NCBI GenBank assembly: GCA_965648905.1 | Contig: CBFGIT010000030.1 | Location: 1-29,518, forward strand | Length of the DNA: 29,518 nt | Reading direction: 5' to 3' | Source: a candidate division WOR-3 bacterium | GTDB lineage: Bacteria; Hydrothermota; Tepidihabitantia; Tepidihabitantales; Tepidihabitantaceae | Shown here: positions 6,026-29,348 of the stretch, piece by piece | Layout of the letters: the number at the start of each line of letters is the position of its first letter | How positions within the stretch are numbered: position 1 is the stretch's first letter | Translations under genes and position numbers: made by a program | The notes under the pieces: model-generated | The model's database searches: none | Seen by the model: the letters and a program-made list of their open reading frames with translations, nothing else | Told to the model about the DNA's origin: nothing

Positions 6026-7507
6026 GTGAAGATAACGCTAATGCCCCGCAAGTCATGGACCGGACGCGTGCTGGCTGCGTTCATGCTCGAGGGCGAAAAG
6101 ACCCTGCTCGGTATGACCGCTGCTGAGAGCATGGAATTTGTCCGAGTCGCGGCCGAGGAGAAGTTTACCGGCCAGGCAAAGAAGACGTCGTTCATGCGCT
6201 ACGACTCGGGCGTGAGCAAACTGGTCCTCGTCGGGCTGGGCAGGCGGAAGGACACCACGTTGGATATCGTGCGTGCCGGTACGGCCAAGGCACTGAAGCG
6301 GGCCGAGGAAGTCGGCGCAGAGTCGGTCGGGCTGCTCTTGCCCGAGGGCAGGCTGGGGCGGCTTGAGGTCGCGGACTTTGCCTCAGCCGCAATCGAGGGC
6401 GCCATTCTGGGCAGCTATCGGTTTGCCCGGCATATGACACCTAAGCCGGATGACCCGAAGCCGGTCGCCGAGTTGGTCCTGGTTCTTGCCGGCAATCGTC
6501 CGGCGTCTGTCGGGTTGACGCGCACGGTGGATAGCGCGGTCGCTCTGGCCGATGCGGTCTGTTTCACGCGTGACTTGGTGAACGAGCCATCCAGTCTGAA
6601 GCCACCGGAGAAGATGGGTGAAATCGCCCTGACCTTGGCGCAGAAGGGGCGGGTTTCTGTCAAGGTTATGCACAAGGACGAACTCGAGAAGCTCGGCATG
6701 GGTGGGATTCTGCGGGTCGGCGCTGGTTCGCACGAGCCGCCGTGTCTTGTGCACCTGACCTACACACCAAAGGGCAAGTCCAGAAAGACCGTGGTGGTTA
6801 TCGGTAAGGGCATCACTTTTGATTCAGGCGGGCTGTCCATCAAGCCGGCCACCGGCATGGAGTACATGAAGGACGACATGGCCGGCGCGGCTTCGGTGCT
6901 CGGGTTGTTTAAGTGGCTGGGCACAGTTGAGCTGCCTGTAACCGTCCACGGGTTTGCGCCTCTGGCCGAGAACATGCCGGGCGGCGGCGCGCAGAAACCC
7001 GGTGACATCATTCGGCACTACAACGGCAAAACGGCTGAGGTTATCTCGACCGATGCCGAAGGCCGGCACCTGCTGGCCGACTGTCTTGCCTATGGTTCGA
7101 CCCTGAAACCGGACGTGATGATTGACGTGGCGACTCTGACCGGCGCCTGCGTCGTCGCGCTCGGCGATGAGTACTCGGCCCTGCTCGGCACTGACCAGAA
7201 GACGATCGACAAGCTCATCCGCCTGGGCGGGGAGCAGGGTGAGTTCTTCTGGCAGCTCCCGCTGCCCGAGCGGTACAAGGCTCAGCTCAAGAGCAGGGTT
7301 GCCGACGTGAAACACATCGGCAAGCCTGGCTCGGGCGGCACGATTACTGCGGGTCTGTTTCTGAAAGAGTTTGTCGCCGACGACGTGCCGTGGGTTCACT
7401 TTGACATCGCCGGTCCGTCGTTCACCAAGGAAGACTGGGACTATACTCCGGTCGGCGCAACCGGAATCCCGGTGCGGACTCTGGCCGCGTTCCTGCGGAG
7501 CCTCTAG
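6026..7507 (+). CDS. pepA: Leucyl aminopeptidase (M17 family)
   Basis: GKGITFDSGG, MKDDMAGAA, TDAEGR, DVATLTGAC and WVHFDIAG motifs. Confidence 0.95.
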   Translation: MKITLMPRKSWTGRVLAAFMLEGEKTLLGMTAAESMEFVRVAAEEKFTGQAKKTSFMRYDSGVSKLVLVGLGRRKDTTLDIVRAGTAKALKRAEEVGAESVGLLLPEGRLGRLEVADFASAAIEGAILGSYRFARHMTPKPDDPKPVAELVLVLAGNRPASVGLTRTVDSAVALADAVCFTRDLVNEPSSLKPPEKMGEIALTLAQKGRVSVKVMHKDELEKLGMGGILRVGAGSHEPPCLVHLTYTPKGKSRKTVVVIGKGITFDSGGLSIKPATGMEYMKDDMAGAASVLGLFKWLGTVELPVTVHGFAPLAENMPGGGAQKPGDIIRHYNGKTAEVISTDAEGRHLLADCLAYGSTLKPDVMIDVATLTGACVVALGDEYSALLGTDQKTIDKLIRLGGEQGEFFWQLPLPERYKAQLKSRVADVKHIGKPGSGGTITAGLFLKEFVADDVPWVHFDIAGPSFTKEDWDYTPVGATGIPVRTLAAFLRSL

Positions 7508-7539
7508 TGGCGATCAATTCTCGGAAGAGGAGTACAGTG

Positions 7540-9690
7540 ATGACCAGAGCGCTGATTGGGTTGTTGAGCTGTTCTGTATTGGTGCTGGCGATGCCGTTGC
7601 CTGAGTCCGGAGCACCGCCGCCGGAAGCGGTTCCGTTCGATGACGCCAGCCGGGTCGCCTTGAGCCTTGCGCGAGCCGAGTTCCCGGGCGCACGACTGGG
7701 CACGGTTGTGCCCTATGTTGACGAGTCGGGCATGACTGCGGCCTGGATGTTCCACTTCAGGACTGATGGTGGTATGTTTCCCGACTATGACCGGGTCGCG
7801 GATGAGGTGCTTGCCCAGCGCCAAACTTTGGCGCCGAACACCAATCTGACCTGCTGGACATCGCCCTACTGCTACGTGCTTGTCTCGGCACGCTATGACC
7901 GGCCGCCGGTCTGCCGCTTCGGCTACGGCAGCTCCGAGTACTACGCGCTCGGCCGCCCGGCGCTCAATGAGGCTCGGGCACTTCTGGGCGTTGATGCCCG
8001 GCTGTCGCGCATCTACTTTGTTTACCCGAACACCTATCTTGAGTTTGAAAACGGAGTCGGTCAACGTGTTGTCCTCTCCTTTCAGCCGAAGCGCGTCTGG
8101 TCATCGCGGGCGGACTTCGCGGAATACATAGCGGTCGAGCGGTCCGAGATGGAACGTCAGTACCCGGTGGATGAGCAGGCGGTCCGTGAGTGCCACCGCC
8201 GCGAGTGGGACCGAGCGCTGGTCGGTTACGGGCCGAGTTATGCCGACGTGTTCGTACCCAACGTGAGCCGGGCGCCGTTCTACGACTGGAGCTATGGATG
8301 CACGCCGACTTCAGGCGCGATTGTCCTGGGGTACATCGACCGCACCAGAGAATACGGCCGACTCGTAGACTGGTTTGCCCAGCGTCGTGACAACGTTGAG
8401 AATGAGATGGACTGGCAGATACCCAACGTGCAGCGGGAGTGTGCTCTGGCGATGTACACCGATACGAGTTACGGCGGGACGTATCTGCAGTACATCGCAC
8501 CCGGACTGGCAACGGTCGGGGCTGATAACGGCTACTCGTTCGAGGTAACCGATGTTCTGGGCGCGGAGTGGAACGACTGGGCCTGGGATACGATCACGGC
8601 GCAGATTGACTCGGGTCGGCCGATGGTCTGGTCTGCGACCTGGGAGCGGCATTCGCTGGCCTGTTTCGGCTACCGGACCGAAGGTCAGTTCCTGTATGTG
8701 CACAATACCTGGTGGCAGCCCGCGGCCTGGTGGTCTCATTCTGGGCCGAACTGGGCCCATGTTGCTGCCGTCAACCCGAGTGGAGGCGACCCGCACCAGT
8801 TGCATCTGGTCTACCCCAAGGGCGATACGAACTACAATTCGACGGGCAGGGGAGAAGTAATCTACGTCGGAGACACCTGCCTTGTCCGCTGGGACAATCA
8901 CGGCAATCCGGGTACGGCAGTGGATATCTATCTGTCGCAGAACGGAGGGCGCGATTGGCTGCAGATCGTTGACGACGCTCCGGACAATGGTTCCTACGCC
9001 TGGTACGTTTCCGAGGCCCTGACGAGCAATGATACAAACCGGTTCCGACTCGAGCAGTACAATGGCGCCACCTATACTGCGGCCGACGGTTCGTTCGGCA
9101 ACTTCCGATTCCAGCGCGAGCCGATGCCGCCAACTCACCTGGCTCCACCCAATGGCCTGCCGCTTCAGAACCCGCCGGTCGTGCTGGTGATTGATTCGAC
9201 CCGGGCCCGGTGCGACAGCGTCGAGTTCAAGCTGATACTCGGGGTTGATACCATCTGGCATCAGCTTGGCACGGCGTCGCGCTGTTCGCTGCCCGACAAC
9301 CTGTTCGAGCGCAATCGTACGTACAAGTGGACGACACGAAGCCACAACCGGTTCGGCTGGGGTTCATGGGCAGGCACGTGGTCTTTTCGGGTGATGTTCG
9401 GTGGGGTCGAGGAGGCACCAGGGTCGTTACGGCCACAGGAGCCTCGGCTGCCAGCAGTGGCGCGCGTAAGCGGCGGTGCAGTCATGTTGCCTGGTGCAGT
9501 GGCAGGCTCGAAGGTTGAGGTCTTTGATGCACTGGGGAACCTTGTCCGGGTGGTTCAGCCGGCTCAAGCAGGTGAGTCAGGTTGGGACCTGCGTGATGGT
9601 TACAGACGACGGGTTCAGACCGGCCTCTACTTCGTTCGGTTCGTGGCCGAAACCGGGACTCAAACTCGCAAGTTCGTCCTAGTCGACTAG
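7540..9690 (+). CDS. Secreted papain-fold cysteine peptidase (C39-like/C10-like) with propeptide-like N-terminus, Ig/Fn3-like domains and T9SS/FlgD-Ig-like C-terminal domain
   Basis: Signal peptide; catalytic-type WSYGCTPTS (Cys) and RHSLACFGY (His); CTD VFDALGNLVR...WDLRD...GLYFVR...KFVLVD; RBS GAGGAG before 7537/7540. Confidence 0.75.
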   Translation: MTRALIGLLSCSVLVLAMPLPESGAPPPEAVPFDDASRVALSLARAEFPGARLGTVVPYVDESGMTAAWMFHFRTDGGMFPDYDRVADEVLAQRQTLAPNTNLTCWTSPYCYVLVSARYDRPPVCRFGYGSSEYYALGRPALNEARALLGVDARLSRIYFVYPNTYLEFENGVGQRVVLSFQPKRVWSSRADFAEYIAVERSEMERQYPVDEQAVRECHRREWDRALVGYGPSYADVFVPNVSRAPFYDWSYGCTPTSGAIVLGYIDRTREYGRLVDWFAQRRDNVENEMDWQIPNVQRECALAMYTDTSYGGTYLQYIAPGLATVGADNGYSFEVTDVLGAEWNDWAWDTITAQIDSGRPMVWSATWERHSLACFGYRTEGQFLYVHNTWWQPAAWWSHSGPNWAHVAAVNPSGGDPHQLHLVYPKGDTNYNSTGRGEVIYVGDTCLVRWDNHGNPGTAVDIYLSQNGGRDWLQIVDDAPDNGSYAWYVSEALTSNDTNRFRLEQYNGATYTAADGSFGNFRFQREPMPPTHLAPPNGLPLQNPPVVLVIDSTRARCDSVEFKLILGVDTIWHQLGTASRCSLPDNLFERNRTYKWTTRSHNRFGWGSWAGTWSFRVMFGGVEEAPGSLRPQEPRLPAVARVSGGAVMLPGAVAGSKVEVFDALGNLVRVVQPAQAGESGWDLRDGYRRRVQTGLYFVRFVAETGTQTRKFVLVD

Positions 9691-9759: not shown

Positions 9760-12087
9760 TTAGCGGGTGACTAGGATCTTGGCGATTCTGTCCTGGCGTT
9801 TGACGAAGTAGACTCCGGGCGTGAGGGAGCCAACTTCGTTGGAACCCGGCTTGAGCAGGAGAAGTGTGCGTCCGGTTGCATCGAGGAGAGTTGCCGACGA
9901 TTCCTGACCGTCGTCTGCCGGAGTCAGATTGATAAATCCGCGGGAGACGGTAAGCGCGGGACGCGGCGAAAGGCCAGGGGAATGTGGTTCGGTGACCCCG
10001 GTCATGCTGTCGCGGAAGACCGAGATAGAGGAGTTGCCGTAGTTGGCGACATAGACCCGGTTGTCTTGTGGATGCCAGGCCATATCGACCGGCTGCAGAC
10101 CGGCCTGGAGTACGCTTCGTATCGAGTGGAGGCGCGCATCAATCACCGAGACCGTGCCGGTCGAATGGCAGCAGTAGACGGTCTTGTTCGCATCGTTGTA
10201 GAGCAGGCCGATGGGCCTTGGTGATACTGGTACAGTCGCGACCCACTGCCCGGTCGTGCCATCAATCACAGTCAGGTCGGCGCCGGCACGGTTCGCGCAG
10301 TAGACGAGGTTGCCTTCGGGCACGTGGAGCAGGGCCACAGGTTCCTGACCCACTCCAACGTTTGAGACGAGCGAGTCACCCCAGGCGTCGATGATGCTCA
10401 CGGTGTACGACTCGCGGTTGGCGCAGAATACGAGACCGCTTTGTGGATTGTAGCAGAGTGCGATTGGTGTGTCGCCGACCGCGATCGTGGCGCAGACAGT
10501 GTCGACCGAGCAGTTGATGACCGATACGGTCCGGCCCAGCGCATTAGCGCAGTAGACTCGGTTCTGAGTCGGGGCGGCGCAGAGCGCGACCGGCGCGTTA
10601 CCGACCGGGACCGATGCGATGGTCGTATCGAGTGAACCGGAGATGACGCTGAGCGCCCGCCGGGTCCGGCTGGTGACGTAGACCTTGTCCGCAGTTCGGT
10701 TGTAGCAGACCGCAAGGGGCGCGCCGCCAATCTTGGGCGTTGCGATGACGTTGCTCGACTGGCCGTCAATGATTGCCACGTCCGAACTGGCGTAGTTGAC
10801 GCAGTAGACCTTGTTTCTCTGGTCATTCCAGCAGAGTGCGCTTGGTTCGCGGCCGGTCTGGATACCGGCAATGACGGCGTTGGTCGGACAGTCAATCACT
10901 GCAACCATGCCAACTGCGCGGTTGGCCGAGTAGAGCAGGCGTCCGGTCGCGTTGTAGCAGAGGGCCTGGGGTTGGGCCCAGCTCGAGAGCACCGCAAGGG
11001 TTGCTCCGGACTGACCGTCGAGCACGGTCACCGTGTTGCCGGTGCGGCTGGCGCAGTAGACCCGGCCCGCGTCCGGGTTGAAGCAGAGTGCCACTGGTTC
11101 GTCGGCAACGGCGACCGACTCGATGACGGCATTGGTCGCGCCGTTGATGACCGAGACGCTGTCCGAGAGTTCGTTGGCACAGAAGACGCGGTTATGGACC
11201 GTGTCGCAGACCAGAGCGCGGGGATAGCGACCAACCCGAATCGTGGCAACGACCGCATTTGACGCGCCGTCAATCACGGTCAGCGTGCGACTTAGCTCGT
11301 TACCGCAGTACACCTTGTTGTTACGGGAATTGTAGGCGAGCGCGACCGGGCGTGACCCGGCTGGCCGGGAGGCAATCAGCGTGTTCGTCACGGCGTCAAC
11401 TATCCTGACGGAATCGCGCTGGTAGTCCGCAACGTAGACTTTGTTGTCGCGCGGGTTGTAGCACACGGCCGCAGCCTGACTGCCGACGGCAATCGTCGCT
11501 AGCACGGTGTCGGGAACGCAGTCAATGACCGAGAGCGTACCGGCATTCTTGTTGGCGACGAAGATGCGATTGTCAACCGTGTCGTAGACCAGGGCCTGCG
11601 GTGTCAGACCAACCGGCACGTGGCGCAGAACCTGATTGGACGCGGCGTCGATGACCGTGACGCTGGTGCTGACGTAGTTGGCGACATAGACCTTGTTACC
11701 GCGCGGGTCATAGGCCGCGGCGCACGGGCCACTACCGGTTGGCAAGGTGGCAATCACCGTGTTGGAGCCGGCGTCGATGATGGAGACGCTGTCAACCGCC
11801 CGATGGACAGCATAGACTCTGTTGCTCACCGGGTTGTAGCAAAGAGCGCTAACAGTAGACGTCACGGGAATAGTCATGGTCTGGCTGTTTGACGTGCCAT
11901 CAATGACGATGACCGAGTTGCCCGAGTCGCCGCCGACATAGACCGAGCCACTGCCCGAGGCGTAGACCAGGTTCTGCGGGTTGCGTGCCCCGCCGAACAA
12001 GATTGTCTGTTCCAGCCACTGGGCTCGAACCGCCGGAACTGAAGCGAGACAGAGCAGGCAGGTCAATACTGCGGACGTGGTTTTCAT
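9760..12087 (-). CDS. Secreted YncE/YVTN beta-propeller repeat protein (16 repeats) with T9SS-like C-terminal domain
   Basis: Signal peptide MKTTSAVL...VRA-Q; 16 repeats of ~42 aa (P.ALCYNP..NKVYCAN..S.TVSVID); C-terminus LLDATGR...PGVYFVK...KILVTR; RBS CAGGAGG before ATG 12087. Confidence 0.88.
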   Translation of the reverse strand: MKTTSAVLTCLLCLASVPAVRAQWLEQTILFGGARNPQNLVYASGSGSVYVGGDSGNSVIVIDGTSNSQTMTIPVTSTVSALCYNPVSNRVYAVHRAVDSVSIIDAGSNTVIATLPTGSGPCAAAYDPRGNKVYVANYVSTSVTVIDAASNQVLRHVPVGLTPQALVYDTVDNRIFVANKNAGTLSVIDCVPDTVLATIAVGSQAAAVCYNPRDNKVYVADYQRDSVRIVDAVTNTLIASRPAGSRPVALAYNSRNNKVYCGNELSRTLTVIDGASNAVVATIRVGRYPRALVCDTVHNRVFCANELSDSVSVINGATNAVIESVAVADEPVALCFNPDAGRVYCASRTGNTVTVLDGQSGATLAVLSSWAQPQALCYNATGRLLYSANRAVGMVAVIDCPTNAVIAGIQTGREPSALCWNDQRNKVYCVNYASSDVAIIDGQSSNVIATPKIGGAPLAVCYNRTADKVYVTSRTRRALSVISGSLDTTIASVPVGNAPVALCAAPTQNRVYCANALGRTVSVINCSVDTVCATIAVGDTPIALCYNPQSGLVFCANRESYTVSIIDAWGDSLVSNVGVGQEPVALLHVPEGNLVYCANRAGADLTVIDGTTGQWVATVPVSPRPIGLLYNDANKTVYCCHSTGTVSVIDARLHSIRSVLQAGLQPVDMAWHPQDNRVYVANYGNSSISVFRDSMTGVTEPHSPGLSPRPALTVSRGFINLTPADDGQESSATLLDATGRTLLLLKPGSNEVGSLTPGVYFVKRQDRIAKILVTR

Positions 12088-12104
12088 CGGGTCCTCCTGA
12101 CAAG

Positions 12105-12132
12105 ATGGTAGAACATCAGGAGCCAGTGTCAA
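12105..12132 (-). promoter_or_regulatory. Promoter of the YVTN propeller gene
   Basis: TTGACA-16 bp-TACCAT; the ORF track's TTG start at 12132 is this -35 box. Confidence 0.6.
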
Positions 12133-16272: not shown

Positions 16273-16387
16273 TATCGAGCAGTGAGACATGGCGAGCGGT
16301 TGAGATGGCAGCCGTTCCCCACAATGTAGAATAGAACTCGCCGGCCCGATACAGGGTTGCGTGAGTTGTTTGGCAGGAGGCCATGTG

Positions 16388-19300
16388 ATGCGGATTGCTG
16401 TTCTGGCATGTGTAGTACTTGAACTGGCGGTGGGGGCGACGCCGGTCACGTGGACGGGTGGTTTCAATGGCGGAAGTCTGTCGATTCAACCAGGGCCGAT
16501 TCACGTCGTGCACCAGGACATGGACGGCCGTCGGTTTGCGTCGGTTGGCATCGCGGGCGCCGGAGTCGGGGGCGATTACGGCACACCAGCCGTGCCATGG
16601 TTCCGGTATCTTGTCGAGGTGCCGCTCGGCGCCGAGGTCACGGTCGTAAGCGACGTGGGTATGTTGGATACAATGGTGCTCGAATCACCGCTGGCTCCGC
16701 GCCAAGAGCCGGTGCCGAAGTCCGGACCAGCCCCGTTGTTCTGCTATGACGCCAAGGCCTATGCTCAGGATAGTCTCCTTCCTACAATCAGTGCCCGTTT
16801 GACCGAGTTCGTCGAGGTACGGGGACACCGTATCGCCGTGATTGATGTCTTCCCGGCGGCGTACAACCCGGTTCGAAACATGCTGGTTACGGTCCAGGAG
16901 ATGAAGCTGCAGGTGGACTGGACTGGAGCGGACTGGGGAGCAACGCACGCGGCTCATCGTCGCTACGCTTCACCCGCGTTTGTCGGCCGGCTTGACCGGG
17001 TCGTGCTCAATTCCGAGCAATTCGCCTTTGATGATGGGCCGAGTCTACCGGTCGGGTACCTGGTGATTGTGCCGGATGACTGGGAGCCGAGCGTCCGGCC
17101 TCTGGTCGACTGGCGTCGGCGCAAGGGGTACAACGTGTTTGTGAGGACGTTAACTCAGGTCGGTGGCGGTTCGACAGATGCGGTCAAGGCGTACATCCAG
17201 AACGCTTATGACAACTGGCCGATCCCGCCGAGCTTCGTGCTCCTGGTCGGCGACGTGGACCGCATCAATTGTTTCACTGGTGGCGGTCAGGGAAGTCCGC
17301 CGACTGACTTGAACTTCGCCTGTGTAGCCGGAACCGACTACCTGCCGGACATTGACGTGAGCCGGCTCTCGGTGGCAAGTCAGGCACAGCTCGACAGTTT
17401 TGTCAGTAATGTCGTGCGCTATGAGCAGGTGACCGGAACCGGTGGGACCGGATGGCTGCAGCGCGCATACTTCGTCGCATCGTCCGATGGCGGCAACCAC
17501 CAGGTCGCCGAGCGCACCCACGCTCATGTGATGGGCCGGCTTCGGCCCAGAGGTGTGCTCTGTGACTCCCTATGGCTCTATTACGGAACCGGCACACCGA
17601 TTCCCAGCGCGGTCAATTCCGGACGCGCCTGGGTGACATATTCGGGCCACGGCAGCGAGAACGCCTGGGCCGACCCCAGTCCGGACTTCGACCTTGCCGC
17701 AGTACACGGGCTCGCTAATGTTGACCTGATTCCTTATGTTCAGACCTACGCCTGCTATTCGGGCAACTTCGCTTCGTCGAGCTATCCTGAATGCTTCTCC
17801 GAGGCGTGGATAAGGAATGGCCGACGCGGCGCGATTGCGCACGTTGCCTCCTCAGTGACCTCGTATTGGACCGAGGACGACACGCTTGAACGCCGAGTCT
17901 TCGACTGCATGTTCGACTCGGCCGCGACCTGGATCATGGGCGGGCTGAACAAGGCCAGACTCTGGTACTTCCGCCAGATGGGTTCAACTCCGACCACACG
18001 CCGTTACCTCGAGATGTACAACCTGATGGGCGACGGTGCAATCGACATCTTCACTCGGGAACCCAAGAGGCTATCGGTCGTTCACCCGTCGGTGATTCCG
18101 CTCGGGGTCTATGCGCTTCCCGCATCGGTCTTTACCGGGCAGGCGCCGGTTCCGAATGCGCTGGTCTGTGCCACGGCGAAGCACGACTCCACGGTGTTTG
18201 CTGCCGGCTACACCGATGCTGCCGGTCAGGTTGTTCTCTCGATTACCACCCTGCAGCCGGACTCAGTCTACTTGACAGTCACGGGCCACAATCTCGAGCC
18301 ATATCTGGGTGCTGCGCCGGCCCTGCCTTCGGCCGGTCCGTATGTCGCATATCTGCGTCATACCGTGGACGACTCTGCAGGCGGCAACCGTGACGGTGTC
18401 ATCAATCCGGGCGAGACAGTCAACCTGCCGGTCTGGGTGAGAAACTGGGGTGGCGTCGAAGCAGAGGGGGTTCGGGCCTGGCTGCGAGCGACCGACTCGA
18501 GCGCAGTGGTGCTCGACTCCCTGCGTGACTTCGGCAGCGTAGGCGCTGGAGATTCGGCTTACACCGGCCGGACCGGGTTCGGGTTCCGGGTTGCGCCGAG
18601 TTGTACCAACCAGCAAGTGCTCCGGTTCACGCTTGTGGCACAGGATCGCTGCGATTCCACCTGGGTTTCCTCGCTTGCCCTGACCGTCGGCACGCCGGTA
18701 GTGCGGTTCCTGGGCTACCGGGCTGACGACCCGCCGCCGGGCGGCAACGGCAACGGCATGATTGACCCGGGCGAGAACGGCGACATCATCGTCACCCTGC
18801 GCAACCAGGGCCGGGGCAACGCCTACGGCGTATTCGCAACTCTGCGTTCGGGCGACGCGCGGCTCGTGGTGCTCGACTCGGTCGGCTCGTTCGGCGACAT
18901 CTTGGCCGACTCGACCGGGAGCAATGCGGCCGACCGGTTTTCGGTGCGAGCCGACGGGACGATTCCCCGCGAGACTAGAGTCGCGTGTACGCTTGCGGTC
19001 TGGCTCGGCGCAGTCACGGAACTGCACACTTTTCAACTGGCGGTCGGAACGATCCGAAGCTGTGACCCGATTCCGGATGGCCCGCGCACACCGGCCCGTT
19101 ACTACGCCTACGACATTACCGACACCGCCTATTCCGAAGCACCGGACTTCGTCTGGCACGAATTGCGCGGCATCGGCACGCGGCTGACACTGGGCGACGA
19201 TGAAACCCGGGTCGTGAGTCTGCCCGAGTCGTTTGGTCCGCTGGTCTGGTACGGTCAGAGCTTCAGTCAGCTCTCGGTCTGCGGCAACGGCTGGGTCGCG

Positions 19301-20047
19301 CCCGGGTCAACCACATCCTCGGCCTATGCCAACACCGCGCTGCCCGACGGCACGAACCCGGGAGTTATCGCTTGCTGCTGGGACGACCTGTATCCGCCTC
19401 AGGGCGGCGGCGTGCTGTACTATTTCGATGAGGCCCGGCGGCGTTTCATCGTCGAGTGGGATTCGGTCCACTATTACTCGCCCCGTGAACAGTGGGACTC
19501 GTACCAGCTCATATTCTGCGACAGCTCAATGCGCACCCCGACCGGAGATAACGTGGTCGTCGCCCAGTATCTGACCGCGAACAACTACGGCTCGGTCACG
19601 GTCGGCATCGAAGACCCGCAGTCGACCATCGGCATCAACTACCTCTGTAACGGAGTCTACCATCGAGGCGCAGCAGCAGTTACACCGGGCATGGCGATCA
19701 AGTACACGACCAGTCCGCCCCAGCCGCGCGTCGGTGCGACCGAGGCCGACCATCTGCCCGGAAAGCCGACGCGGCTCAGTCTGTTCGGTGGTGCACCCAG
19801 TCCGTTCCGTTCCCGCACCCGGCTATCCTACGCCGTGCCGCGGTCGATGCGACTGCAACTGGCGGTCTACGACCGCGCCGGCCGGACGGTGACCGTGCTG
19901 GTTGACGGGCCGGTCGAGCCGGGAAACCACGTCGTATGCTGGAATGGAACCGACGCCCGCGGTCGACGCGTGCCCCAGGGCATCTACCTGTTCCGGCTGA
20001 GAAGCGACGACGTCACTCTAGTACAGAAGACCGTGCTGGTTGACTGA
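16388..20047 (+). CDS. Gingipain-like peptidase family C25 with propeptide, two Ig-like repeats, a C-terminal beta domain and FlgD-Ig/T9SS-like CTD
   Basis: Signal peptide; LVDWRRRKGY, FVLLVGD, His-Cys dyad YSGHGS...YACYSG, YNLMGD; two DD..GGN.[DN]G.I.PGE repeats; CTD VYDRAGR...WNGTD..GRRVPQGIYLFRL...KTVLVD; RBS CAGGAGG. Confidence 0.9.
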   Translation: MRIAVLACVVLELAVGATPVTWTGGFNGGSLSIQPGPIHVVHQDMDGRRFASVGIAGAGVGGDYGTPAVPWFRYLVEVPLGAEVTVVSDVGMLDTMVLESPLAPRQEPVPKSGPAPLFCYDAKAYAQDSLLPTISARLTEFVEVRGHRIAVIDVFPAAYNPVRNMLVTVQEMKLQVDWTGADWGATHAAHRRYASPAFVGRLDRVVLNSEQFAFDDGPSLPVGYLVIVPDDWEPSVRPLVDWRRRKGYNVFVRTLTQVGGGSTDAVKAYIQNAYDNWPIPPSFVLLVGDVDRINCFTGGGQGSPPTDLNFACVAGTDYLPDIDVSRLSVASQAQLDSFVSNVVRYEQVTGTGGTGWLQRAYFVASSDGGNHQVAERTHAHVMGRLRPRGVLCDSLWLYYGTGTPIPSAVNSGRAWVTYSGHGSENAWADPSPDFDLAAVHGLANVDLIPYVQTYACYSGNFASSSYPECFSEAWIRNGRRGAIAHVASSVTSYWTEDDTLERRVFDCMFDSAATWIMGGLNKARLWYFRQMGSTPTTRRYLEMYNLMGDGAIDIFTREPKRLSVVHPSVIPLGVYALPASVFTGQAPVPNALVCATAKHDSTVFAAGYTDAAGQVVLSITTLQPDSVYLTVTGHNLEPYLGAAPALPSAGPYVAYLRHTVDDSAGGNRDGVINPGETVNLPVWVRNWGGVEAEGVRAWLRATDSSAVVLDSLRDFGSVGAGDSAYTGRTGFGFRVAPSCTNQQVLRFTLVAQDRCDSTWVSSLALTVGTPVVRFLGYRADDPPPGGNGNGMIDPGENGDIIVTLRNQGRGNAYGVFATLRSGDARLVVLDSVGSFGDILADSTGSNAADRFSVRADGTIPRETRVACTLAVWLGAVTELHTFQLAVGTIRSCDPIPDGPRTPARYYAYDITDTAYSEAPDFVWHELRGIGTRLTLGDDETRVVSLPESFGPLVWYGQSFSQLSVCGNGWVAPGSTTSSAYANTALPDGTNPGVIACCWDDLYPPQGGGVLYYFDEARRRFIVEWDSVHYYSPREQWDSYQLIFCDSSMRTPTGDNVVVAQYLTANNYGSVTVGIEDPQSTIGINYLCNGVYHRGAAAVTPGMAIKYTTSPPQPRVGATEADHLPGKPTRLSLFGGAPSPFRSRTRLSYAVPRSMRLQLAVYDRAGRTVTVLVDGPVEPGNHVVCWNGTDARGRRVPQGIYLFRLRSDDVTLVQKTVLVD

Positions 20048-22380: not shown

Positions 22381-22635
22381 ATGGCGACGAAGAAGAACGG
22401 TTCAGAGGCGGTTGGCTTTGAGCAGGCGCTGGCCGAGCTTGAGAGCATCGTCAAGCAGCTTGAGGCTGGCAACCTGGCTCTGGAGAAGTCGTTGGAGCTC
22501 TTTGAACGGGGGGTCGGACTGGCACGGCTGTGCAAAGAGAGGCTGGTCCAGGCCGAGCTGAAGGTGAGTCAGTTGGTCAAGGACAAGGAGGGATTGTTCT
22601 CCGAGGAACCGTTCGAAGAGGGCGGGAGTCGCTAG
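22381..22635 (+). CDS. xseB: Exodeoxyribonuclease VII small subunit
   Basis: FEQALAELESIVKQLE.GNL.LE.SL.LFERG..L...C...L..AE.KV; RBS AGGAGG. Confidence 0.95.
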   Translation: MATKKNGSEAVGFEQALAELESIVKQLEAGNLALEKSLELFERGVGLARLCKERLVQAELKVSQLVKDKEGLFSEEPFEEGGSR

Positions 22636-24584
22636 GGCAGGACCGTGAGCTTGGCCGCCGGGCCATGGGCCGGCATGACCAAGACGAAGTAGCCGCCAGC
22701 CGGCATCGACCTAAGGTCGAGCGCGAATGACGAAGTCCGAATGTCGAATGACGAACGAAAGACCAGGTGGCCCGAGGTATCGTAGACGCGGAGCGCAAAC
22801 GGCGGGGCGCGAGAGGCGAAAGGCGCCCTCACTACCGTCTGCCCGCGGCAGGGGTTGGGCTCGATTGTGAACGCGGGGTCGGCTGGCAGCCTGGAAGGAT
22901 GCGGTTCCTCACGGGCCGTGAGCTCCACAGTCTCAATGCGCAGAGCCCGACGTGCCACCAGCGGTGCGGACACCCGCGGATACCAGTTGTTGCAGGTGTG
23001 GGTCAGGCCGCTGGAGCCGTCCCGGTTCTGGAGGCCGACAGTTGCCTGCGAGAAGTTGTTCGCGGTGCGGAACTGAATCATCATTGAGTTGTCGCCGGTC
23101 GGTGTGGTGACCGTCTGGTCGTAGAGCTGGAACTGAACCTTTTCCCAGTCACGCACGTGGCCGAAGTAAGGGACTGAGTCATACTCGACGATGAACCGGT
23201 GATTGGCGGTGTCATGGTAGTACCAGATTGAGCCGAACGCAGTCGGGTCAAGGTCGTCCCACTGCACGGCCACGATGTTCGGCGGGGCGTTCTGATAAGG
23301 CAGCGCGACGTTGACAAAGTCGCACCGGTCGGTCCAGCCCGCAGCGACCCAGCCATTGGAGCAGACCGAAATCGTGTCGTAGTCCACGCCATAGTAGCGC
23401 CACGGACCGAATCCCTCGGGCAGGGCAAGCTGTTGTGTTTCGTCGCTGCCCAGGTCGATTCGCACGCCGATACTGCGAAGCTCAAGCCAGTCGTAGACCG
23501 GCAGCCGGGCATAGCCGGAGTCGGTGTAGTCGTAGATGCGATAGCCGCCGATGTCCGGGCCTGCGGGCAGATTGGTTGAGTCGCCGACGAGGAGCGGTAT
23601 CAGAACCGTGTCGTGATAGCCGCTGCCTGAGAGTACAAGATGGCAGTACGCCGGCATCTCGACCGGGGCACCGGCCGCGGCCCGCACCCGGAACCGGTCG
23701 ATGCCTGAGGATGTTGTCTCGCCCTCACCGACCGCGGGGAAGCTTCCGTCCGGGTCGAGCACTGTCAGGTAGGGGCTGTCCGACTCAAGCCGGCCGGTGA
23801 GCGGGCCGACCGGCGCGCCGGTGTTCCTGAGCACGATGGCAATGTCCGCTTCCTCGTCCGGGTCGAGCTTGGCGTTGACGATACCGCCCGTGTCGTCAAC
23901 CCGGAAAGAGAAGAACCGCAGGTATGGAGCTTCTCTGGTCCAGACGGACAGGTTGTCGGCGAAGACCTTCGCCGCGGGATAGACGCTTCAGCAGTTGTCG
24001 AGGACGAAGCCGAGCAAATACACTCGGATCGCCTTGACCGACTCCGGAACCACACCCGGGAGATTGGAGCTGACTTCCTCGGCAACGTTGAACCGGTAGT
24101 CGTGCCATTGCAGCGAGTCAGGCGCGGGCACGAGATGAAGAACCGATGTGCTGGTCCAGGGGCAGCCCGCGGTGGCGGAATAGATCCGGGTCTCGCCGAT
24201 GACCGAATCGCGACTGTCCAGATACTCGAGTCCGGCGCAGGCCGCGGCAAAGAGCGATTCGCGCTCGGTCTTGGACGAGAGGCGGCAGGAAACGGCGTAA
24301 CCGAGGTCGAGAGTGACAACGCTGAACTTCTGGGACAGCTTCATCCCCTGATGGAGCATCTTGTGCAGCATCACTTCCCGGTCCCGGTCCGGAGCGATAT
24401 CGTGCCGCCAGCGCAGGCGGCAGTTGCCGGTGTCGGAGTACATCCCCCAAGTATCGAGTTGCCAGCCGAACTCGGGCGCGAGTTCGAAGTCGCCGTTGAT
24501 CACAAGGTCACGACCGGACGCAAGCGCGACGAGCAAAGCACACAGCGTCGTCAGTGTCGCCGTTCGCCATTCGCGGTTCGTCAC
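22632..24584 (-). CDS. Predicted secreted selenoprotein (~650 aa, Cys198-Sec199): CBM-like jelly-roll, Ig-like repeat, C25-associated beta domain and T9SS-like CTD
   Basis: GTG 24584 starts a signal peptide. The frame reads ...GFVLDNC-TGA-SVYPAAKVFADNLSVWTREAPYLRFFSFRVDDTGGIVNAKLDPDEEADIAIVLRNTG... straight into the 22632..23834 ORF; a SECIS-like hairpin follows the TGA. Confidence 0.75.
22724..22758 (+). repeat. CGAA-type heptamer array inside the CTD coding region
   Basis: cgaatga cgaagtc cgaatgt cgaatga cgaacga. Confidence 0.65.
23957..23990 (-). promoter_or_regulatory. In-frame UGA plus bacterial SECIS-like stem-loop
   Basis: mRNA: UGA-13 nt-CGGCGAAG-GU-CUUCGCCG; the apical sequence AGGUCU follows a 19-nt spacer after UGA. 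Confidence 0.72.
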
Positions 24585-24595
24585 TCGCGGTTCGC
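24557..24595 (-). repeat. CGAA-type heptamer array spanning the start of the selenoprotein gene
   Basis: Minus strand: cgaaccg cgagtga cgaaccg cgaatgg cgaacgg cga. Confidence 0.6.
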
Positions 24596-25170
24596 TAGTA
24601 GATCGGCTGACCGACGCGGACCGTGTAGGTGTTTGTACGGTACTCAACCTTGACCGCGTCGGAACCGACCTCGACGATTCGGCGGCCTTCAAGGTCATCA
24701 CCTGGCTTGAGTCGTTTCTCACCGACCAGGGCATAGCGCGAACCGCTGGCATCGACGATGATCGCCTTCAGCTCGTGGGGACTTGAGCTGCTGCGCCGGC
24801 TCGAACTGCGGGTGAAGCCACCCGACTCGCTTCGCCGTGTGCGGCTCGGGCGGCCGCGCTGGCGGTCCTCCCGACCTGATTCGCTTCGGCGACTGCGGCG
24901 CGCGGCGACCCGGTCTTCCTGTCGCGAGCGGCGCGAGGCTTTTGCGACCGAGGATGATTTGGTGCGTTTCTTCGGTGTTTCTTCACCGGCCGCGGGCTTG
25001 GCCCGGGTCGGGGTCGGCTGGCTCCTGCCCGTGGTCAGCAGTACCACGACAATGATAACAACAACCGCCGCACCAATCGCCATGTAGAGGTACTGATTCG
25101 CCGCTCCTTTCTGGGCGCCCCGGGCACGCGGTCGCTGCGGGGCGGCAGCGGTCTTGCGTGAAGCCATCAT
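24595..25170 (-). CDS. Single-TM protein with Arg/Ser-rich linker and C-terminal GspB/PilP/GspC-HR-like beta domain
   Basis: TM segment YLYMAIGAAVVVIIVVVLL; C-terminus LKAII...YALVGEKRLKPGDDLEGRRIVEVGSDAVKVEY; RBS AGGAGGTG. Confidence 0.65.
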   Translation of the reverse strand: MMASRKTAAAPQRPRARGAQKGAANQYLYMAIGAAVVVIIVVVLLTTGRSQPTPTRAKPAAGEETPKKRTKSSSVAKASRRSRQEDRVAARRSRRSESGREDRQRGRPSRTRRSESGGFTRSSSRRSSSSPHELKAIIVDASGSRYALVGEKRLKPGDDLEGRRIVEVGSDAVKVEYRTNTYTVRVGQPIY

Positions 25171-25270: not shown

Positions 25271-28200
25271 CTAGAAGTCGGCGCGCAGCTCGGATGAGAA
25301 TCGGTGGTCTGCTGGCCGGTCCGGACGGTCGGAGAAACCGTACCGGGCCGAGGCGTTGAGGACGTTGCTGAATGAGTGGCTGAGTTCGAGTCCCAGCATG
25401 GGGTTCAGACCGGTGGGACTGGAAAGCGCCAATTCGTAGGGCAGGTCGGGAACCGACGCGGTCCGGCGAACCAGTTCAATCGAGGTACGGATGCGGGTGC
25501 GCGAGCCGATGGTCGTGGACCGGGCGAGTCCGCCACGCCAGACATCGAGCGTGAAGCGTCCCAGCTCGGGATAGGTGACGGGCTCGGCGACCAGAAGTCG
25601 TTCAAAGCCGGTAGTCAACTCCAGCCGCAGTCGCTCACCGAGTACCGGGTTGAATTCCGCCTTGCCGTGAAGTTCCTCGTGGTCGGTCAGGCCGGAGTTC
25701 AACGTCCGTTGTGCCCGGCCCGCCTCAAGACATGAACGGAGCTGAAGCTCGCGGAACCAGTCGGAGTTGAGTTCGACATAGCCGATTGAACGGGCCGAGG
25801 CGAGGCCGGTTGCCGCCAGAGTGCGGTCGTGACTTGCAAGGTAGTTCGCTCCCAGGATCGGGTTCACGGCCGGTTCGAGTGCTCGCACCGACAGCCGCAG
25901 GTCCCAGCGGACGTCGCTTGACAACTCGCCCGATTCGGTCCCGGCGCGGTTCAGACTGAAAGAACCGCTCAGGGCCGCGGGCCGTGCGGTCGAGACTTCG
26001 CCTGAAGCCGAGGCGGAGAGGGTGCGAGCCGCGGTAGTCCGGCCGGTCGTAATCACCACGCGCTCGTAGTCACCATCCGGGTCTGAGACGTAGCGGCCGG
26101 TAACCGTGTCTCTTCGGAACGTGCCTTGGCCCGGTCCGACGTAGCGGAAGAACTCGTCGCGCAGTTGCACGCGCCGGAACGACTGGCCCAGGTCAGTCAT
26201 GAATCTGAGCCCGGCCCGGGGTGCGAACGTGGCCCGGATGCTGCCCAGAAGCTGATGCCAGTCATCCTGAGCACTGAGCAGAAACCTGCGGTCCTGGTGG
26301 GCTGCGCGGCCGTCAAGGTCCAGAGCCGGCAAGGGTTTCCATCCGACTGTCACCTGGACCAGTCGAGCGCGGCTGGTCCTGTTCCAAGCTCCGCGGCTGG
26401 AGTCAGGTTCCTCGTACTCAGTGAGCCGGGCCGATACGCCGCCGGCCGGACGTCCGACTGACCGACGGGTCGAGCTGTCGACTGCGAGGTCAAGACCGGC
26501 AAGCCAGGAGCGCGACCGTTCCTCGGGCCGAGCTTCGTTCTGCCATCCGGCCCGGGGCAGCAGCGGTCCGAGCCGGGGCGCGGCATGAACGTCGTGACGC
26601 GTAACCTGACCGGCGTGTGCTCCTTCATACTGCAGCCAGCCGAGTCGTGCCGACCCGCCCAGCCGCGTCACCGCTCTCCGGTCAGTCCTTGCCAGCCGTC
26701 CGGCATCAGCCGCAAACTCCAGAAACCGCCAGGGCCGGGCGTGTGCTGCCAGTTCGTCGCTGCTCGCGCGCTGGTCCTCAGTTGTCCCGCCCCAGCGGTA
26801 GCTGAAATCAACAATCGGGCTGGCACCGGGTAGTGCAAGACCACCCCCCTGCATATGGCGGCGGTACCCAAAGCCCCAAGTCGAGTCTTGGTACGCAGCC
26901 GAAAGGTTGAGCCCGGAAGCTCCCGGCCCGACCGGAGACGGGGCGAACAGGTTGAGGTTTCGGCGCTGAAACGCGCCTTCGACCCGGGTTGAAAGCCGAG
27001 CTGCATTCAGCCCGACCCGGGCGTAGACCAACTCATCCTGCTCGGGCAACCGCACCCGCACCCGCGCGGCATAGTTGCCTGCGCCCGGGCCGACATATAG
27101 GTACGCGAACAGCGTGTCGTTGTACACGTAGTCTCCGACCGAGTCCCCCACCAGGGTAAACTGGACGTTGTAGTCGCCGCTATCCGGGCAGTAGAGGAAG
27201 TGGTCGGCTTCACGGACATAGCTGCCGTTGCCCGAGCCGACGTAGGTCTCGCCCGGCAGCCAGGCTCGGCTTGTGTCCTGGCCGATGCTGGCCAGATAGT
27301 CCTGTTCCTCCGGACTGAGGTCAAGAGCCAGGTTGCGTGACCGGTTGTCATTCTCGCGGAAAAGCCCCAGACCGAGGTCGAACAAGGCCGGGCGATAGTC
27401 CGCCACCACCGCTGCTCCGGTGCGCTCATAGTCACCGGCCGCAAACTGGAACGTTGCCTCGATTCGCGACCGGTGGCTGATGATATTCCGGTCGGTGAAT
27501 ACCAGCTCGCCGCCTGCGTAGTCAATGGTGTAATCTCCGTCCCAGCCCCGAGTCATGCGCCGGCCATCAAGATAGACCGCTTCGCTGCCCGGCACGACCG
27601 TTGCGGCCTGTCCGTTCGGCGCCAGCAGATAAGGGCCTTGGGAACCATCGGTCCCGAGCAGGGAGACCCGGCCGAACTGGCCCCGGGGCGTGGCATAGCC
27701 GACCGTCACGTTGGCGCCGCCGGTCTGACCTGAAACCAGCGCGCCCTTTGCTCGACGTTCGATTCGGCCGAACGACCCTGCAGGCACCGAGACGTCAACA
27801 TCGCCGAACGAGCCCTGCCAGGACCGAGCTTTGAGACTGATGAGCAGCCGGTCAAGCTCCTGAATGTCGCGGGTCGTGCCCTCTGCCGGAATCGGCGAGC
27901 TCTGGTCCGAGAGCTCGGCCTCGACCCTGATTCCCTCGACCTCGCCCGAAAGCGCTACTCGGGTCGCCTGGTCAATGCCGCTGCCTTCGGTTCCGCCGAA
28001 CGAGACTCCGACCGTCTTGCTGCCCGAGAGTTCCAGACCCGCACCCGGTCCAGTCGTGTCAATGACCGCAAGCACGGTGCTGTCGGCCTGCAGTGCCGGA
28101 ACCGGCTGATTCCGGGACGCGCTGCGGGCACGGGACGGGCCGCCGAAATGCAGGCACCGTCGGGTGACGGTTATGACCGCGCCGGCTGCCGGTCTCGTCA

Positions 28201-28564
28201 GTAGCCAGACCCGTCCGTGGGCGGGGTCGAAAAGGTAGCGAGACCGGTCCAGGACGCGACCGTCGACGTGCACGGTGTCGGTGCCGATGACGGTCAGTTC
28301 TTCGGGCAACCAGAACACCGCGCTCGACCCATCGGCAACGAACACGGTTTGACACCGCTCGCCGATTAGCTCGGCTCGGCACGAATCGTGCCCCCGGGTC
28401 GGAGAAGGCACGCCGAACAGTTCGTGGGGCAGCAGCCCGACGGCAAACACGAGAGCGCCCGCCCGGACCAGTGCCGCGACCGGTGCGGCGAGAAGCCCGA
28501 GCCGCCAGGGTCGGGTCGACTTACAGTTGCGGCAGAACGTACGACAGGACTCGGGTTCCGGCAT
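25271..28564 (-). CDS. Large (~1100 aa) outer-membrane beta-barrel protein of an FCB-type conserved family with SprA-like motifs; start uncertain
   Basis: SGSKTVGVSFG...LSDQSSPIPAEGTTRDIQELDR, GPYLL...GSEAVYLDGRRMTRG...DYTIDYAGGELVF; long amphipathic beta region; BAM-type terminal Phe (ELRADF). Confidence 0.65.
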   Translation of the reverse strand: MPEPESCRTFCRNCKSTRPWRLGLLAAPVAALVRAGALVFAVGLLPHELFGVPSPTRGHDSCRAELIGERCQTVFVADGSSAVFWLPEELTVIGTDTVHVDGRVLDRSRYLFDPAHGRVWLLTRPAAGAVITVTRRCLHFGGPSRARSASRNQPVPALQADSTVLAVIDTTGPGAGLELSGSKTVGVSFGGTEGSGIDQATRVALSGEVEGIRVEAELSDQSSPIPAEGTTRDIQELDRLLISLKARSWQGSFGDVDVSVPAGSFGRIERRAKGALVSGQTGGANVTVGYATPRGQFGRVSLLGTDGSQGPYLLAPNGQAATVVPGSEAVYLDGRRMTRGWDGDYTIDYAGGELVFTDRNIISHRSRIEATFQFAAGDYERTGAAVVADYRPALFDLGLGLFRENDNRSRNLALDLSPEEQDYLASIGQDTSRAWLPGETYVGSGNGSYVREADHFLYCPDSGDYNVQFTLVGDSVGDYVYNDTLFAYLYVGPGAGNYAARVRVRLPEQDELVYARVGLNAARLSTRVEGAFQRRNLNLFAPSPVGPGASGLNLSAAYQDSTWGFGYRRHMQGGGLALPGASPIVDFSYRWGGTTEDQRASSDELAAHARPWRFLEFAADAGRLARTDRRAVTRLGGSARLGWLQYEGAHAGQVTRHDVHAAPRLGPLLPRAGWQNEARPEERSRSWLAGLDLAVDSSTRRSVGRPAGGVSARLTEYEEPDSSRGAWNRTSRARLVQVTVGWKPLPALDLDGRAAHQDRRFLLSAQDDWHQLLGSIRATFAPRAGLRFMTDLGQSFRRVQLRDEFFRYVGPGQGTFRRDTVTGRYVSDPDGDYERVVITTGRTTAARTLSASASGEVSTARPAALSGSFSLNRAGTESGELSSDVRWDLRLSVRALEPAVNPILGANYLASHDRTLAATGLASARSIGYVELNSDWFRELQLRSCLEAGRAQRTLNSGLTDHEELHGKAEFNPVLGERLRLELTTGFERLLVAEPVTYPELGRFTLDVWRGGLARSTTIGSRTRIRTSIELVRRTASVPDLPYELALSSPTGLNPMLGLELSHSFSNVLNASARYGFSDRPDRPADHRFSSELRADF

Positions 28565-29348
28565 CGAGCACGACCAGGGTCGAACTGAGAACGGCAAAGC
28601 CGACCGGGCTGGAGCAGCCCGGCAGCCTGAAGCCGGTGGTCCGGCCCCGGGCAAGAGTCCAGACTTCGGGGATACCGGTCTCCATCAGGTAGACCGTGCC
28701 GCGGTCGTCGGACTCAGCAATGTCACAACCGTCGGGAATACGGTCAGTACCGGTCAGTACGCCGGCACGGTTGAAGTGAACCATGTGTCCGTTGCCTGAG
28801 ATGACGCAGAACCGTCCGTCAGGCATGGTCGCCAGTGCGCCAGGATTCGACAGCTCGGATTCGGAAAGAAAGCGACGGCTCTCACCGAACACGGTCTTGT
28901 GCCAGACGACCTTGCGGCTTGCATCACTGACCAGCATCTCACCGGGCGCAAAGCTGGTCATGCCGGCAACCTCGACGTTGCCCAGCCAGGAACCAAGCTC
29001 CAGTTTCTCTTTTGACATGCGCCAGACAACGCGCGAGTCCCAGATGTAGTAGTAGAACCGGTCGGCCCTGACTCCGCGCGGCCCAACCAGCCTTCGGCCA
29101 AGAGGGATTGTCTCACCGGGCACGAGTCGCGCCGACAAGAGTACCAGTCGGTCCCCGCCCGCATCAAGCACGACGACCCGGTCGCCGTCACGGCACAGAC
29201 CAGCGGCCGGAGTAGCGAGGAGGAGTGAATCCGCGGGCAGCAAGGTCAGCTCTGGCCGGCTCGCGGTCATGCGGATGGTCCCGGGACAGCCGGCAACGAA
29301 GACGGCCAGACACAGCGCAAGGATAGGGACCGGTTTCTTCACAGTCAT
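28521..29348 (-). CDS. Lipoprotein with NHL/6-bladed beta-propeller-like repeats
   Basis: Lipobox VAGC after a hydrophobic stretch; repeats of P.G[LV]...[VL][VL].D..[GS].R[VL]. Confidence 0.7.
   Translation of the reverse strand: MTVKKPVPILALCLAVFVAGCPGTIRMTASRPELTLLPADSLLLATPAAGLCRDGDRVVVLDAGGDRLVLLSARLVPGETIPLGRRLVGPRGVRADRFYYYIWDSRVVWRMSKEKLELGSWLGNVEVAGMTSFAPGEMLVSDASRKVVWHKTVFGESRRFLSESELSNPGALATMPDGRFCVISGNGHMVHFNRAGVLTGTDRIPDGCDIAESDDRGTVYLMETGIPEVWTLARGRTTGFRLPGCSSPVGFAVLSSTLVVLDAGTRVLSYVLPQL

Follow-up and report, generated by a model that had tools for sequence, protein, structure and literature searches.

An in-frame TGA very probably read as selenocysteine in a family of predicted surface proteins with a lectin-like fold from candidate division WOR-3

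A reading frame crossed by one TGA

We analysed a 29,518-nucleotide stretch of DNA from a candidate division WOR-3 bacterium (the window; contig CBFGIT010000030.1 of assembly GCA_965648905.1) and describe here a minus-strand gene whose internal TGA is very probably read as selenocysteine (Sec). A first-pass annotation, made from the letters alone, had proposed that two open reading frames (ORFs) at this locus form one secreted selenoprotein gene joined by an in-frame Cys-UGA. The first ORF, of 254 amino acids (24752..23988), terminates with ...VLDNC followed by the TGA at 23990-23988. The 51 codons past this TGA (23987..23835) are open and in frame with the second ORF, of 400 amino acids, which runs from a GTG at 23834 to a TAG at 22634-22632. 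Between a GTG at 24584 and the TAG ending at 22632, the minus-strand frame is broken solely by the TGA.

Reading through the TGA gives 706 residues from the first ATG (24752) and 650 codons from the GTG at 24584. The ATG is unlikely to be the true start, because a 191-amino-acid gene in another frame fills that stretch and ends with a TAG at 24597-24595. We chose the GTG at 24584 as the probable start on account of this upstream stop, which it follows by ten bases, and of the signal-peptide-like sequence, MTNREWRTATLTTLCALLVALASG, with which the frame then opens. Residue numbers given for the protein (P0001) refer to the 706-residue version from the ATG.

In a word-indexed protein search, some 40 close relatives of 392-461 amino acids spanned solely the region past the TGA, which is what gene callers that stop at this codon would yield; one uninterrupted relative of 637 amino acids (P0043) was also returned. 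Two genomic loci fetched by homology both had an in-frame TGA at the same place. When 272 genomes of the phylum were searched in six frames, near-full-length matches carried the TGA, and C-terminal-only matches, which lie inside peptidases of 800-1700 amino acids, carried none. The resulting set held 73 homologue entries, including a paralogue from the source genome; removal of two duplicates (L024, the same as L021, and L025, the same as L022) and one C-terminal fragment (L050) left 70 non-redundant full-length homologues of 28-70% identity. TGA stands at the homologous site in 69 of the 70, with conserved sequence on either side, and in every homologue both halves share one frame across it; homologues split into two genes in different frames, an outcome that the first-pass annotation had named as contrary to its reading, did not appear. 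The local motifs are N-[CSG]-U-[GSMT]-[VI]-Y-P, S-G-U-G-T-P and x-C-U-G-A-[ST]-E, and the sole homologue without a TGA, L081, reads TARQHSE.

A profile of the N-terminal domain found 264 copies in 108 of the 272 genomes, and all of the best 150 of these 264 have the TGA. The 129 entries from the taxonomic family comprise 122 with TGA, one with a TAG that ends the frame before the site, four N-terminal fragments and two that span the site without a stop, that is, TGA in 122 of the 124 copies that span the site. One of the two stop-free copies is L081; the other, L103, reads ...ETSCPPPFDSVRVLADN (...ETSCPPPF...), with a Cys at or next to the Sec position.

The same profile, searched against 1.84 billion representative proteins, gave 416 matches (50%-identity clusters) at an expect (E) value of at most 0.001. 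Among the best 150 of these 416, 106 end at the Sec site, with Cys as last residue in 77 and Gly in 21; 15 end near it, most of them a few residues beyond the profile match to judge from their printed tails; 12 cover just an N-terminal fragment; and 17 continue past the site with no stop. Within these 17, P0115 has a Cys exactly in the Sec column (...HSCG-DGWAEV... versus SGUG-TPWAKV) and four (P0043, P0097, P0135 and P0165) have one within one column, as L103 does by motif; the alignment of the loop around the Sec column is itself uncertain by one residue. At this site, then, TGA is kept and a few relatives have Cys at or near it, a pattern that had been named in advance as a sign of Sec. The expectation that standard gene callers would split the gene was also borne out by database proteins that end at the site or begin just past it. 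The family is routinely cut in two, with hundreds of database entries being truncated halves, and because of this the sizes of selenoproteomes in these organisms are underestimated. On these comparisons, the two ORFs are one gene for a predicted exported cell-surface protein in which the internal TGA almost certainly encodes selenocysteine.

The hairpin after the TGA and the selenocysteine machinery

The stem-loop that the first-pass annotation had placed next to the TGA proved real on comparison (Table 1). Its stem starts 13-14 nt past the TGA, and the hairpin encodes A-K-V-F-A of the last β-strand of the N-terminal domain. Across 69 aligned sequences, the spacing from the TGA to the 6-bp core stem is 14 nt in 39, 11 nt in 27 and 17 nt in 3, and the loop lies 17, 20 or 23 nt from the UGA. 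Of the 414 cells that the six core pairs occupy in this alignment, 413 are paired, and compensatory changes occur at four of the six pairs (G-C to A-U in 5 and 2 sequences, A-U to G-C in 20 and 1). In 500 shuffles, neither the observed covariation score nor the observed percentage paired was ever reached; every measure fell when the 3' arm was slid; and RNAalifold, run unguided, arrived at this stem of 6 bp with its 4-nt loop. A seventh pair, at the outer end, is weak (a standard pair in 49 of 69). The loop of the fdhF selenocysteine insertion sequence (SECIS) also reads GGUC.

Selection on the RNA is visible in the codons. Third-position entropy is 0-0.38 bit over the hairpin's five codons (Ala-Lys-Val-Phe-Ala) and the one preceding these, and 0.84-1.95 bit in flanking codons further out; the hairpin Val codon is GUC in 69 of 69. 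Lys-x-Phe (AAG..UUC) and Glu-x-Ser (GAG..UCC) swap only jointly, with 49 sequences having the A-U pair, 20 the G-C pair and none left unpaired. Lys/Phe and Glu/Ser alternate together in the β-strand because their codons pair in the SECIS stem, which makes the locus a clean example of an RNA signal shaping a protein sequence. Relatives without the TGA lack these features: L081, read as DNA, has no hairpin, and L103 and the TGA-less database relatives, read as residues, have no K-V-F codons.

The published bacterial SECIS model has a loop of 3-9 nt that begins with G followed by G or U, a stem of 4-16 bp, a spacing of 16-37 nt and a minimum free energy (MFE) of -7.5 kcal/mol or lower (PMC13188914). 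The hairpin fits this model, with an MFE of -7.9 to -11.3 kcal/mol for 12 of its 13 variants; the thirteenth, just short on MFE, is taken up below.

The genome (G000; 3.01 Mb in 60 contigs) has selA (560 bits), selB (348 bits), selC (a tRNA-Sec with anticodon TCA, 72 bits) and two selD genes, each with one in-frame TGA and so of the Sec type; all of these matches exceed curated cut-offs, and the full set of genes that the first-pass annotation had named for checking is accordingly present. One Sec-type selD directly adjoins selB (G000:C8:88040-90884) and the second lies at C4:87631-88554. TGA terminates 280 of the 642 open frames of at least 500 codons in the genome, as well as the phosphoglucomutase and C25 peptidase genes of the window. 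Global reassignment of TGA is excluded because it commonly ends ordinary frames.

By hand cross-tabulation, selA is found in 101 of the 108 phylum genomes with the Sec domain versus 21 of the 164 without it. Five of the seven selA-less exceptions were checked, the other two being G160 and G221 (74-76% completeness); three of the five have selB or tRNA-Sec (one both, one selB, one tRNA-Sec), and another, G088, has a weak domain match only (E 2.8e-9). In a single-contig relative (G133:C1:1643019-1647900), selB lies about 3 kb from a member of the Sec-domain family; neither selA nor tRNA-Sec was found in this genome at the thresholds used.

Domains, paralogues and neighbouring genes

An AlphaFold model of the N-terminal domain, built from 65 sequences, is a β-sandwich with a predicted local distance difference test score (pLDDT) of 94.3 and a predicted template-modelling (TM) score of 0.90. 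Sec (model residue 178) sits in a loop between the strands at 164-173 and 183-195, and because it precedes the second of these, termination at the TGA would delete the last strand of the domain, as the first-pass annotation had anticipated for a jelly-roll. The nearest folds by VIA-align are a phage tailspike C-terminal domain (Z 14.9), a porphyran-binding carbohydrate-binding module (CBM; 13.4) and a hyaluronan-binding module (13.1), followed by CBM16 (12.6) and CBM4 modules (10.6-11.6). The fold is that of the modules 2zew (CBM16), 8xmz (porphyran-binding), 1gui and 3k4z (both CBM4) and 4d0q (hyaluronan-binding), with Z 10.7-13.4 and a root-mean-square deviation of 2.5-3.5 over 136-154 residues, and like β-jelly-roll CBMs the domain opens with an NGDFE-type strand and closes with one of the ADD type. 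Foldseek returned CBMs (E 2e-6 to 1e-5), the sugar-binding domain of Fbs1 and the MAM domain of meprin. Unlike in such modules, the CBM_4_9 profile (PF02018) had no match to this protein at E <= 1 and matched one of 19 homologues (E 0.0066). In the model, the Sec domain is a lectin-like jelly-roll of the CBM type. Invariant or near-invariant residues are N86, F89, E90, W97, D122, D124, E126, Q141, Y177, G186, T188, R189, W199, W216, Y219, E226, A261, A265 and D266.

A model of the full-length protein (19 sequences, pLDDT 77) adds three parts: an immunoglobulin (Ig)-like sandwich, a mixed domain and a C-terminal sandwich. Foldseek with this model gave only multi-domain matches at low TM (0.1-0.2), such as MAM-Ig ectodomains and galactose oxidase, and phmmer with the C-terminal 429 residues found nothing among PDB sequences at E <= 1. 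The assignment of the mixed domain as nidogen-like is transitive, as Pfam NIDO has no direct match in this protein: residues 87-285 of P0002 align with 481-670 of P0073 (E 8e-21), and Pfam NIDO matches 543-595 of P0073 with 33 bits (cut-off 25). The C-terminal sorting domain is clearer in relatives: Por_Secre_tail matches 9 of 19 aligned homologues (best E 3.7e-13) and FlgD_ig matches 12. A SprA/Sov translocon is encoded in the genome (G000:C10, 456 bits summed).

At 37% identity (E 6e-68), residues 272-664 match a stretch of the window's C25 peptidase, its residues 775-1177, and the match includes VDDTGG...LDPDEEADI; the DD..GG repeat that the first-pass annotation had seen in both proteins is thus part of a longer shared region. 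A second, weaker Ig-like copy lies at 659-745 of the peptidase. In relatives labelled candidate division WOR-3 by NCBI, M14 and M28 peptidases also finish with this cassette, and the Ig-like, nidogen-like and sorting domains together look like a generic module for surface display. From the sorting domain and the predicted signal peptide we infer export and a surface location for the selenoprotein. The C25 (gingipain-type) peptidase itself (16361..20047, plus strand, 1228 amino acids) consists of a propeptide followed by this Ig-like/nidogen-like/sorting cassette. Two further probable surface proteins are encoded in the window: a C39-like peptidase with a type IX sorting domain (7507..9690, plus strand; TIGR04183, 28.9 bits) and a 790-amino-acid β-propeller protein with YNCE/lactonase/NHL matches (9760..12132, minus strand).

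The gene is not a one-off: the Sec domain occurs eight times in its genome, every copy with an in-frame TGA, and genomes of the phylum have up to nine. Seven of the eight paralogues have the GGUC-loop hairpin, the eighth having GGCGGA-AGUU-UCCGCC instead. Named by contig, the domain is joined to the cassette in C30 (this gene) and C14, to other long regions in C1 and C52, to a sorting domain only in C3 and C31 and to a C-terminal region of about 80 residues in C23, and it stands almost alone in C27. Because the C-terminal architectures vary in this way, the Sec jelly-roll is likely to be a functional, reusable unit.

The vicinal Cys-Sec pair singled out by the first-pass annotation is present in this protein and is not a constant of the family. 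Cys directly precedes Sec in 30 of 65 aligned members, the others having Gly or Ser, and closes 77 of the 106 database proteins that end at the site. In the S-G-U-G-T group a Cys is found instead within a TCWP segment that is conserved, and N-S-U and N-G-U orthologues have neither Cys.

Upstream of the selenoprotein gene, on the same strand, lie a 1127-amino-acid ORF (25271..28654), with a faint SprA/Sov-like stretch (TIGR04189, E 2.7e-3), and then the 191-amino-acid ORF (24595..25170), which has a hydrophobic N-terminal segment and is conserved over its C-terminal 60 or so residues, its stop falling 10 nt before the selenoprotein GTG. Homologues of the 191-amino-acid gene adjoin the homologous selenoprotein gene, directly upstream, in 20 of 29 related loci searched; homologues of the 1127-amino-acid gene are adjacent in 13 of the 29, a count limited by flank length. 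The three genes are probably co-transcribed.

Table 1. Positions of the selenoprotein gene, its parts and its paralogues in the source genome
Feature	Position	Strand	Remarks
Whole selenoprotein gene	22632..24584	-	GTG 24584, Sec-TGA 23990-23988, TAG 22634-22632
Predicted signal peptide, MTNREWRTATLTTLCALLVALASG	24513..24584	-	By inspection; homologues begin alike
CBM-like β-jelly-roll with Sec	23937..24512	-	P0001 residues 81-272; AlphaFold model
In-frame TGA, very probably Sec	23988..23990	-	P0001 residue 255; residue 199 from GTG 24584
SECIS hairpin C-GGCGAA-GGUC-UUCGCC-G	23957..23974 (6-bp core 23958..23973)	-	7-bp stem, 6 bp conserved; GGUC loop
Ig-like β-sandwich with DD.GG.N.KLDPGE motif	23586..23924	-	P0001 residues 277-389; full-length model, strands 201-312
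Nidogen-like (NIDO-related) domain	22929..23546	-	P0001 residues 403-608; transitive evidence
Putative type IX secretion sorting domain	22635..22859	-	P0001 residues 632-706; clearer in homologues
Paralogue	C14:53427-54005		G000; profile match
Paralogue	C52:9772-10338		G000; profile match
Paralogue	C1:71408-71977		G000; profile match
Paralogue	C3:118048-118608		G000; profile match
Paralogue	C31:24340-24912		G000; profile match
Paralogue	C23:27589-28155		G000; profile match
Paralogue	C27:1433-1984		G000; profile match

Readings of the TGA and comparison with known selenoproteins

Downstream hairpins can stimulate stop-codon readthrough in other systems, and the UGA could be decoded without Sec, as Trp, Cys, Arg or Gly, by a suppressor or near-cognate tRNA, the hairpin being a generic stimulator. 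We give this reading little credence, as the loop sequence and spacing fit the SelB-type SECIS model (PMC13188914), the family and selA occur together across genomes, Sec-type selD genes are present in this organism, and some relatives lacking the TGA have Cys, the residue that usually stands in for Sec. That TGA is a frequent true stop in this genome also counts against this reading.

The locus might otherwise hold two genes, one for a small secreted protein of about 175 residues that ends at the TGA and one for an independent 400-amino-acid protein. Databases do contain the corresponding pieces, proteins of about 185 amino acids ending at the site (the 106 noted above) and many of 392-461 amino acids beginning just past it, but gene callers that stop at the TGA would produce exactly these, and the called start of the downstream piece varies among homologues. 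The downstream ORF carries a secretion sorting domain yet no signal peptide, a lack already remarked on in the first-pass annotation. Moreover, the 51 bridging codons are conserved and encode the last strand of the N-terminal domain and the first strand of the next, the frame is always kept, and TGA-less relatives are single proteins of 636-639 amino acids (P0043, P0104 and P0111). Two separate genes are therefore a very slim prospect. The chance of a pseudogene, a nonsense mutation or an assembly error is negligible: a single in-frame stop does resemble a recent nonsense mutation, and public annotation does treat the halves as separate or truncated proteins, but the same TGA recurs in homologues from different genomes down to 28% identity and in all eight own paralogues, both halves are open and conserved, the nucleotides after the TGA are conserved beyond the need of the protein, and the homologous TGAs come from several sources, which speaks against an artefact of a shared pipeline.

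Several observations count against selenocysteine or against a surface protein. Eight of the 17 TGA-less database relatives have no Cys anywhere in the loop, and neither does L081; the existence of TGA-less copies, Cys-less ones included, suggests that the Sec residue is not indispensable to the fold. The counts of co-occurrence with selA overstate the support they give because related genomes are not independent, and one selA-less genome, G128 (96% complete), has the TGA gene with no selA, full selB or tRNA-Sec found in its assembly. As to the hairpin, L074 has one stem mismatch, one variant has an MFE of -7.1 kcal/mol, and no matching Rfam family was found, the sole match being by chance to a hepatitis C virus element (E 2.7). 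Folded as a single sequence, the 81 nt past the TGA are no more stable than their own shuffles (z -0.33), so the case for the hairpin rests on comparison and not on thermodynamics. Finally, the sorting domain scores below cut-off in this protein, at 20.8 bits for Por_Secre_tail (PF18962; cut-off 27) and 15.6 bits for TIGR04183 (cut-off 23).

With these points weighed, the TGA at 23990-23988 is, in all probability, a site of canonical Sec recoding in the gene of a predicted exported lectin-fold selenoprotein. SelB carrying Sec-tRNA(Sec) would recognise the GGUC-loop hairpin 13-14 nt past the UGA and insert Sec instead of letting translation terminate. The product, of about 650 residues, would be exported through the Sec translocon by means of its signal peptide, and its C-terminal sorting domain would hand it to the type IX system, which would place it on or outside the cell surface. 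Sec would then sit in an exposed loop between the last two strands of the N-terminal lectin-like jelly-roll.

The family uses Sec almost exclusively over Cys, which suggests that selenium itself is needed. Together with the Gly-rich exposed loop and the variable partner Cys, this preference favours a reactive selenol over a purely structural residue. Our best guess is a reactive or ligand-binding selenol at the binding site of the lectin-like domain, paired with a nearby Cys in some subfamilies; Sec could equally form a Se-S cross-link that resists reduction, or be a ligand for a metal or chalcogen. More tentatively, and leaning somewhat against it ourselves, we suggest that the Sec jelly-roll may be a new extracellular selenium-dependent binding or catalytic module, present in 8-9 copies per genome, with a selenol at its functional site that is resolved by the Cys at position -1 or the TCWP Cys. 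The part played by a partner Cys is conjectural, given that N-S-U and N-G-U orthologues have neither candidate. Were the proposal true, surface-exposed selenoproteins would be a major use of selenium in this uncultivated phylum, and selenium would have an extracellular purpose in habitats too anoxic and reducing for sulfur chemistry to hold; capture of metals or chalcogens, reduction-resistant Se-S cross-links and redox catalysis with a polymer or mineral as substrate are possible purposes. Work on the family could reveal the uses of selenium chemistry outside the cell where oxygen is absent.

Redox enzymes that are thioredoxin-like or have a metal cofactor make up most of the known bacterial selenoproteins. 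Selenobacteriocins are small peptides, and GCUG is the vicinal Cys-Sec motif of animal thioredoxin reductase. Vicinal Cys-Sec occurs here as N-C-U-S, and as G-C-U-G in homologue L049, but in an internal loop of a β-sandwich rather than in a C-terminal tail or at a metal site, and roughly half of the family lacks the Cys; the catalogued 'CU' families include SaoL, HgcA and KCU-star (PMC13188914, Table 1). The selenobacteriocin TIGR04081 has an SGUG motif and two Sec residues (PMC13188914, Table 1), and one paralogue group, including the copy on C14, likewise reads S-G-U-G; unlike selenobacteriocins, to which no sequence match was found, it has the motif in a folded domain of 190 residues. Other catalogued selenoproteins leave the cytoplasm too, for example the GOS_C hypothetical protein (NF045500) and the FCYXU-type TonB-dependent receptor (NF049945) (PMC13188914); neither NCBIfam model matches here, and their motifs are UxxC and CxxU as against [CGS]-U-[GSMT] in this family.

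In its recoding, the gene resembles other SelB/SECIS genes, of which E. coli fdhF is the prototype (PMC13188914): it has an in-frame UGA, a 4-nt loop with G first, a stem of 6-7 bp and a spacing within range, and selA, selB, selC and selD are present. Its product is related neither to formate dehydrogenase nor to any of the 119 catalogued families; it is predicted to be exported and to have a lectin-like fold that is neither thioredoxin-like nor molybdopterin-based. The first-pass annotation had recognised no selenoprotein family in it, and neither did we: NCBIfam and Pfam scans of the protein found the secretion tail and no selenoprotein model, and the 119 families in Table 1 of a 2026 review (PMC13188914) include no lectin-fold, CBM or type IX secretion family. 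In the passages searched of the papers on deep-Sep (PMC12013277) and BSepDB (PMC13326102) the family is not mentioned, the keywords 'secretion', 'sorting', 'carbohydrate', 'T9SS', 'WOR-3' and 'lectin' do not occur in the BSepDB supplement, and a search for literature linking selenoproteins or selenocysteine with WOR-3, type IX secretion or carbohydrate-binding modules returned nothing relevant. This is a large selenoprotein family that we did not find in current catalogues; its recoding machinery is textbook.

We also scanned the whole genome for in-frame TGAs open on both sides and followed, 15-27 nt on, by a GGTC-loop hairpin whose stem has 5 bp or more. Twenty candidates came up, versus 4 with the control loop GACC. 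Seven of the 20 belong to the Sec jelly-roll family, and the rest may include other unannotated selenoproteins.

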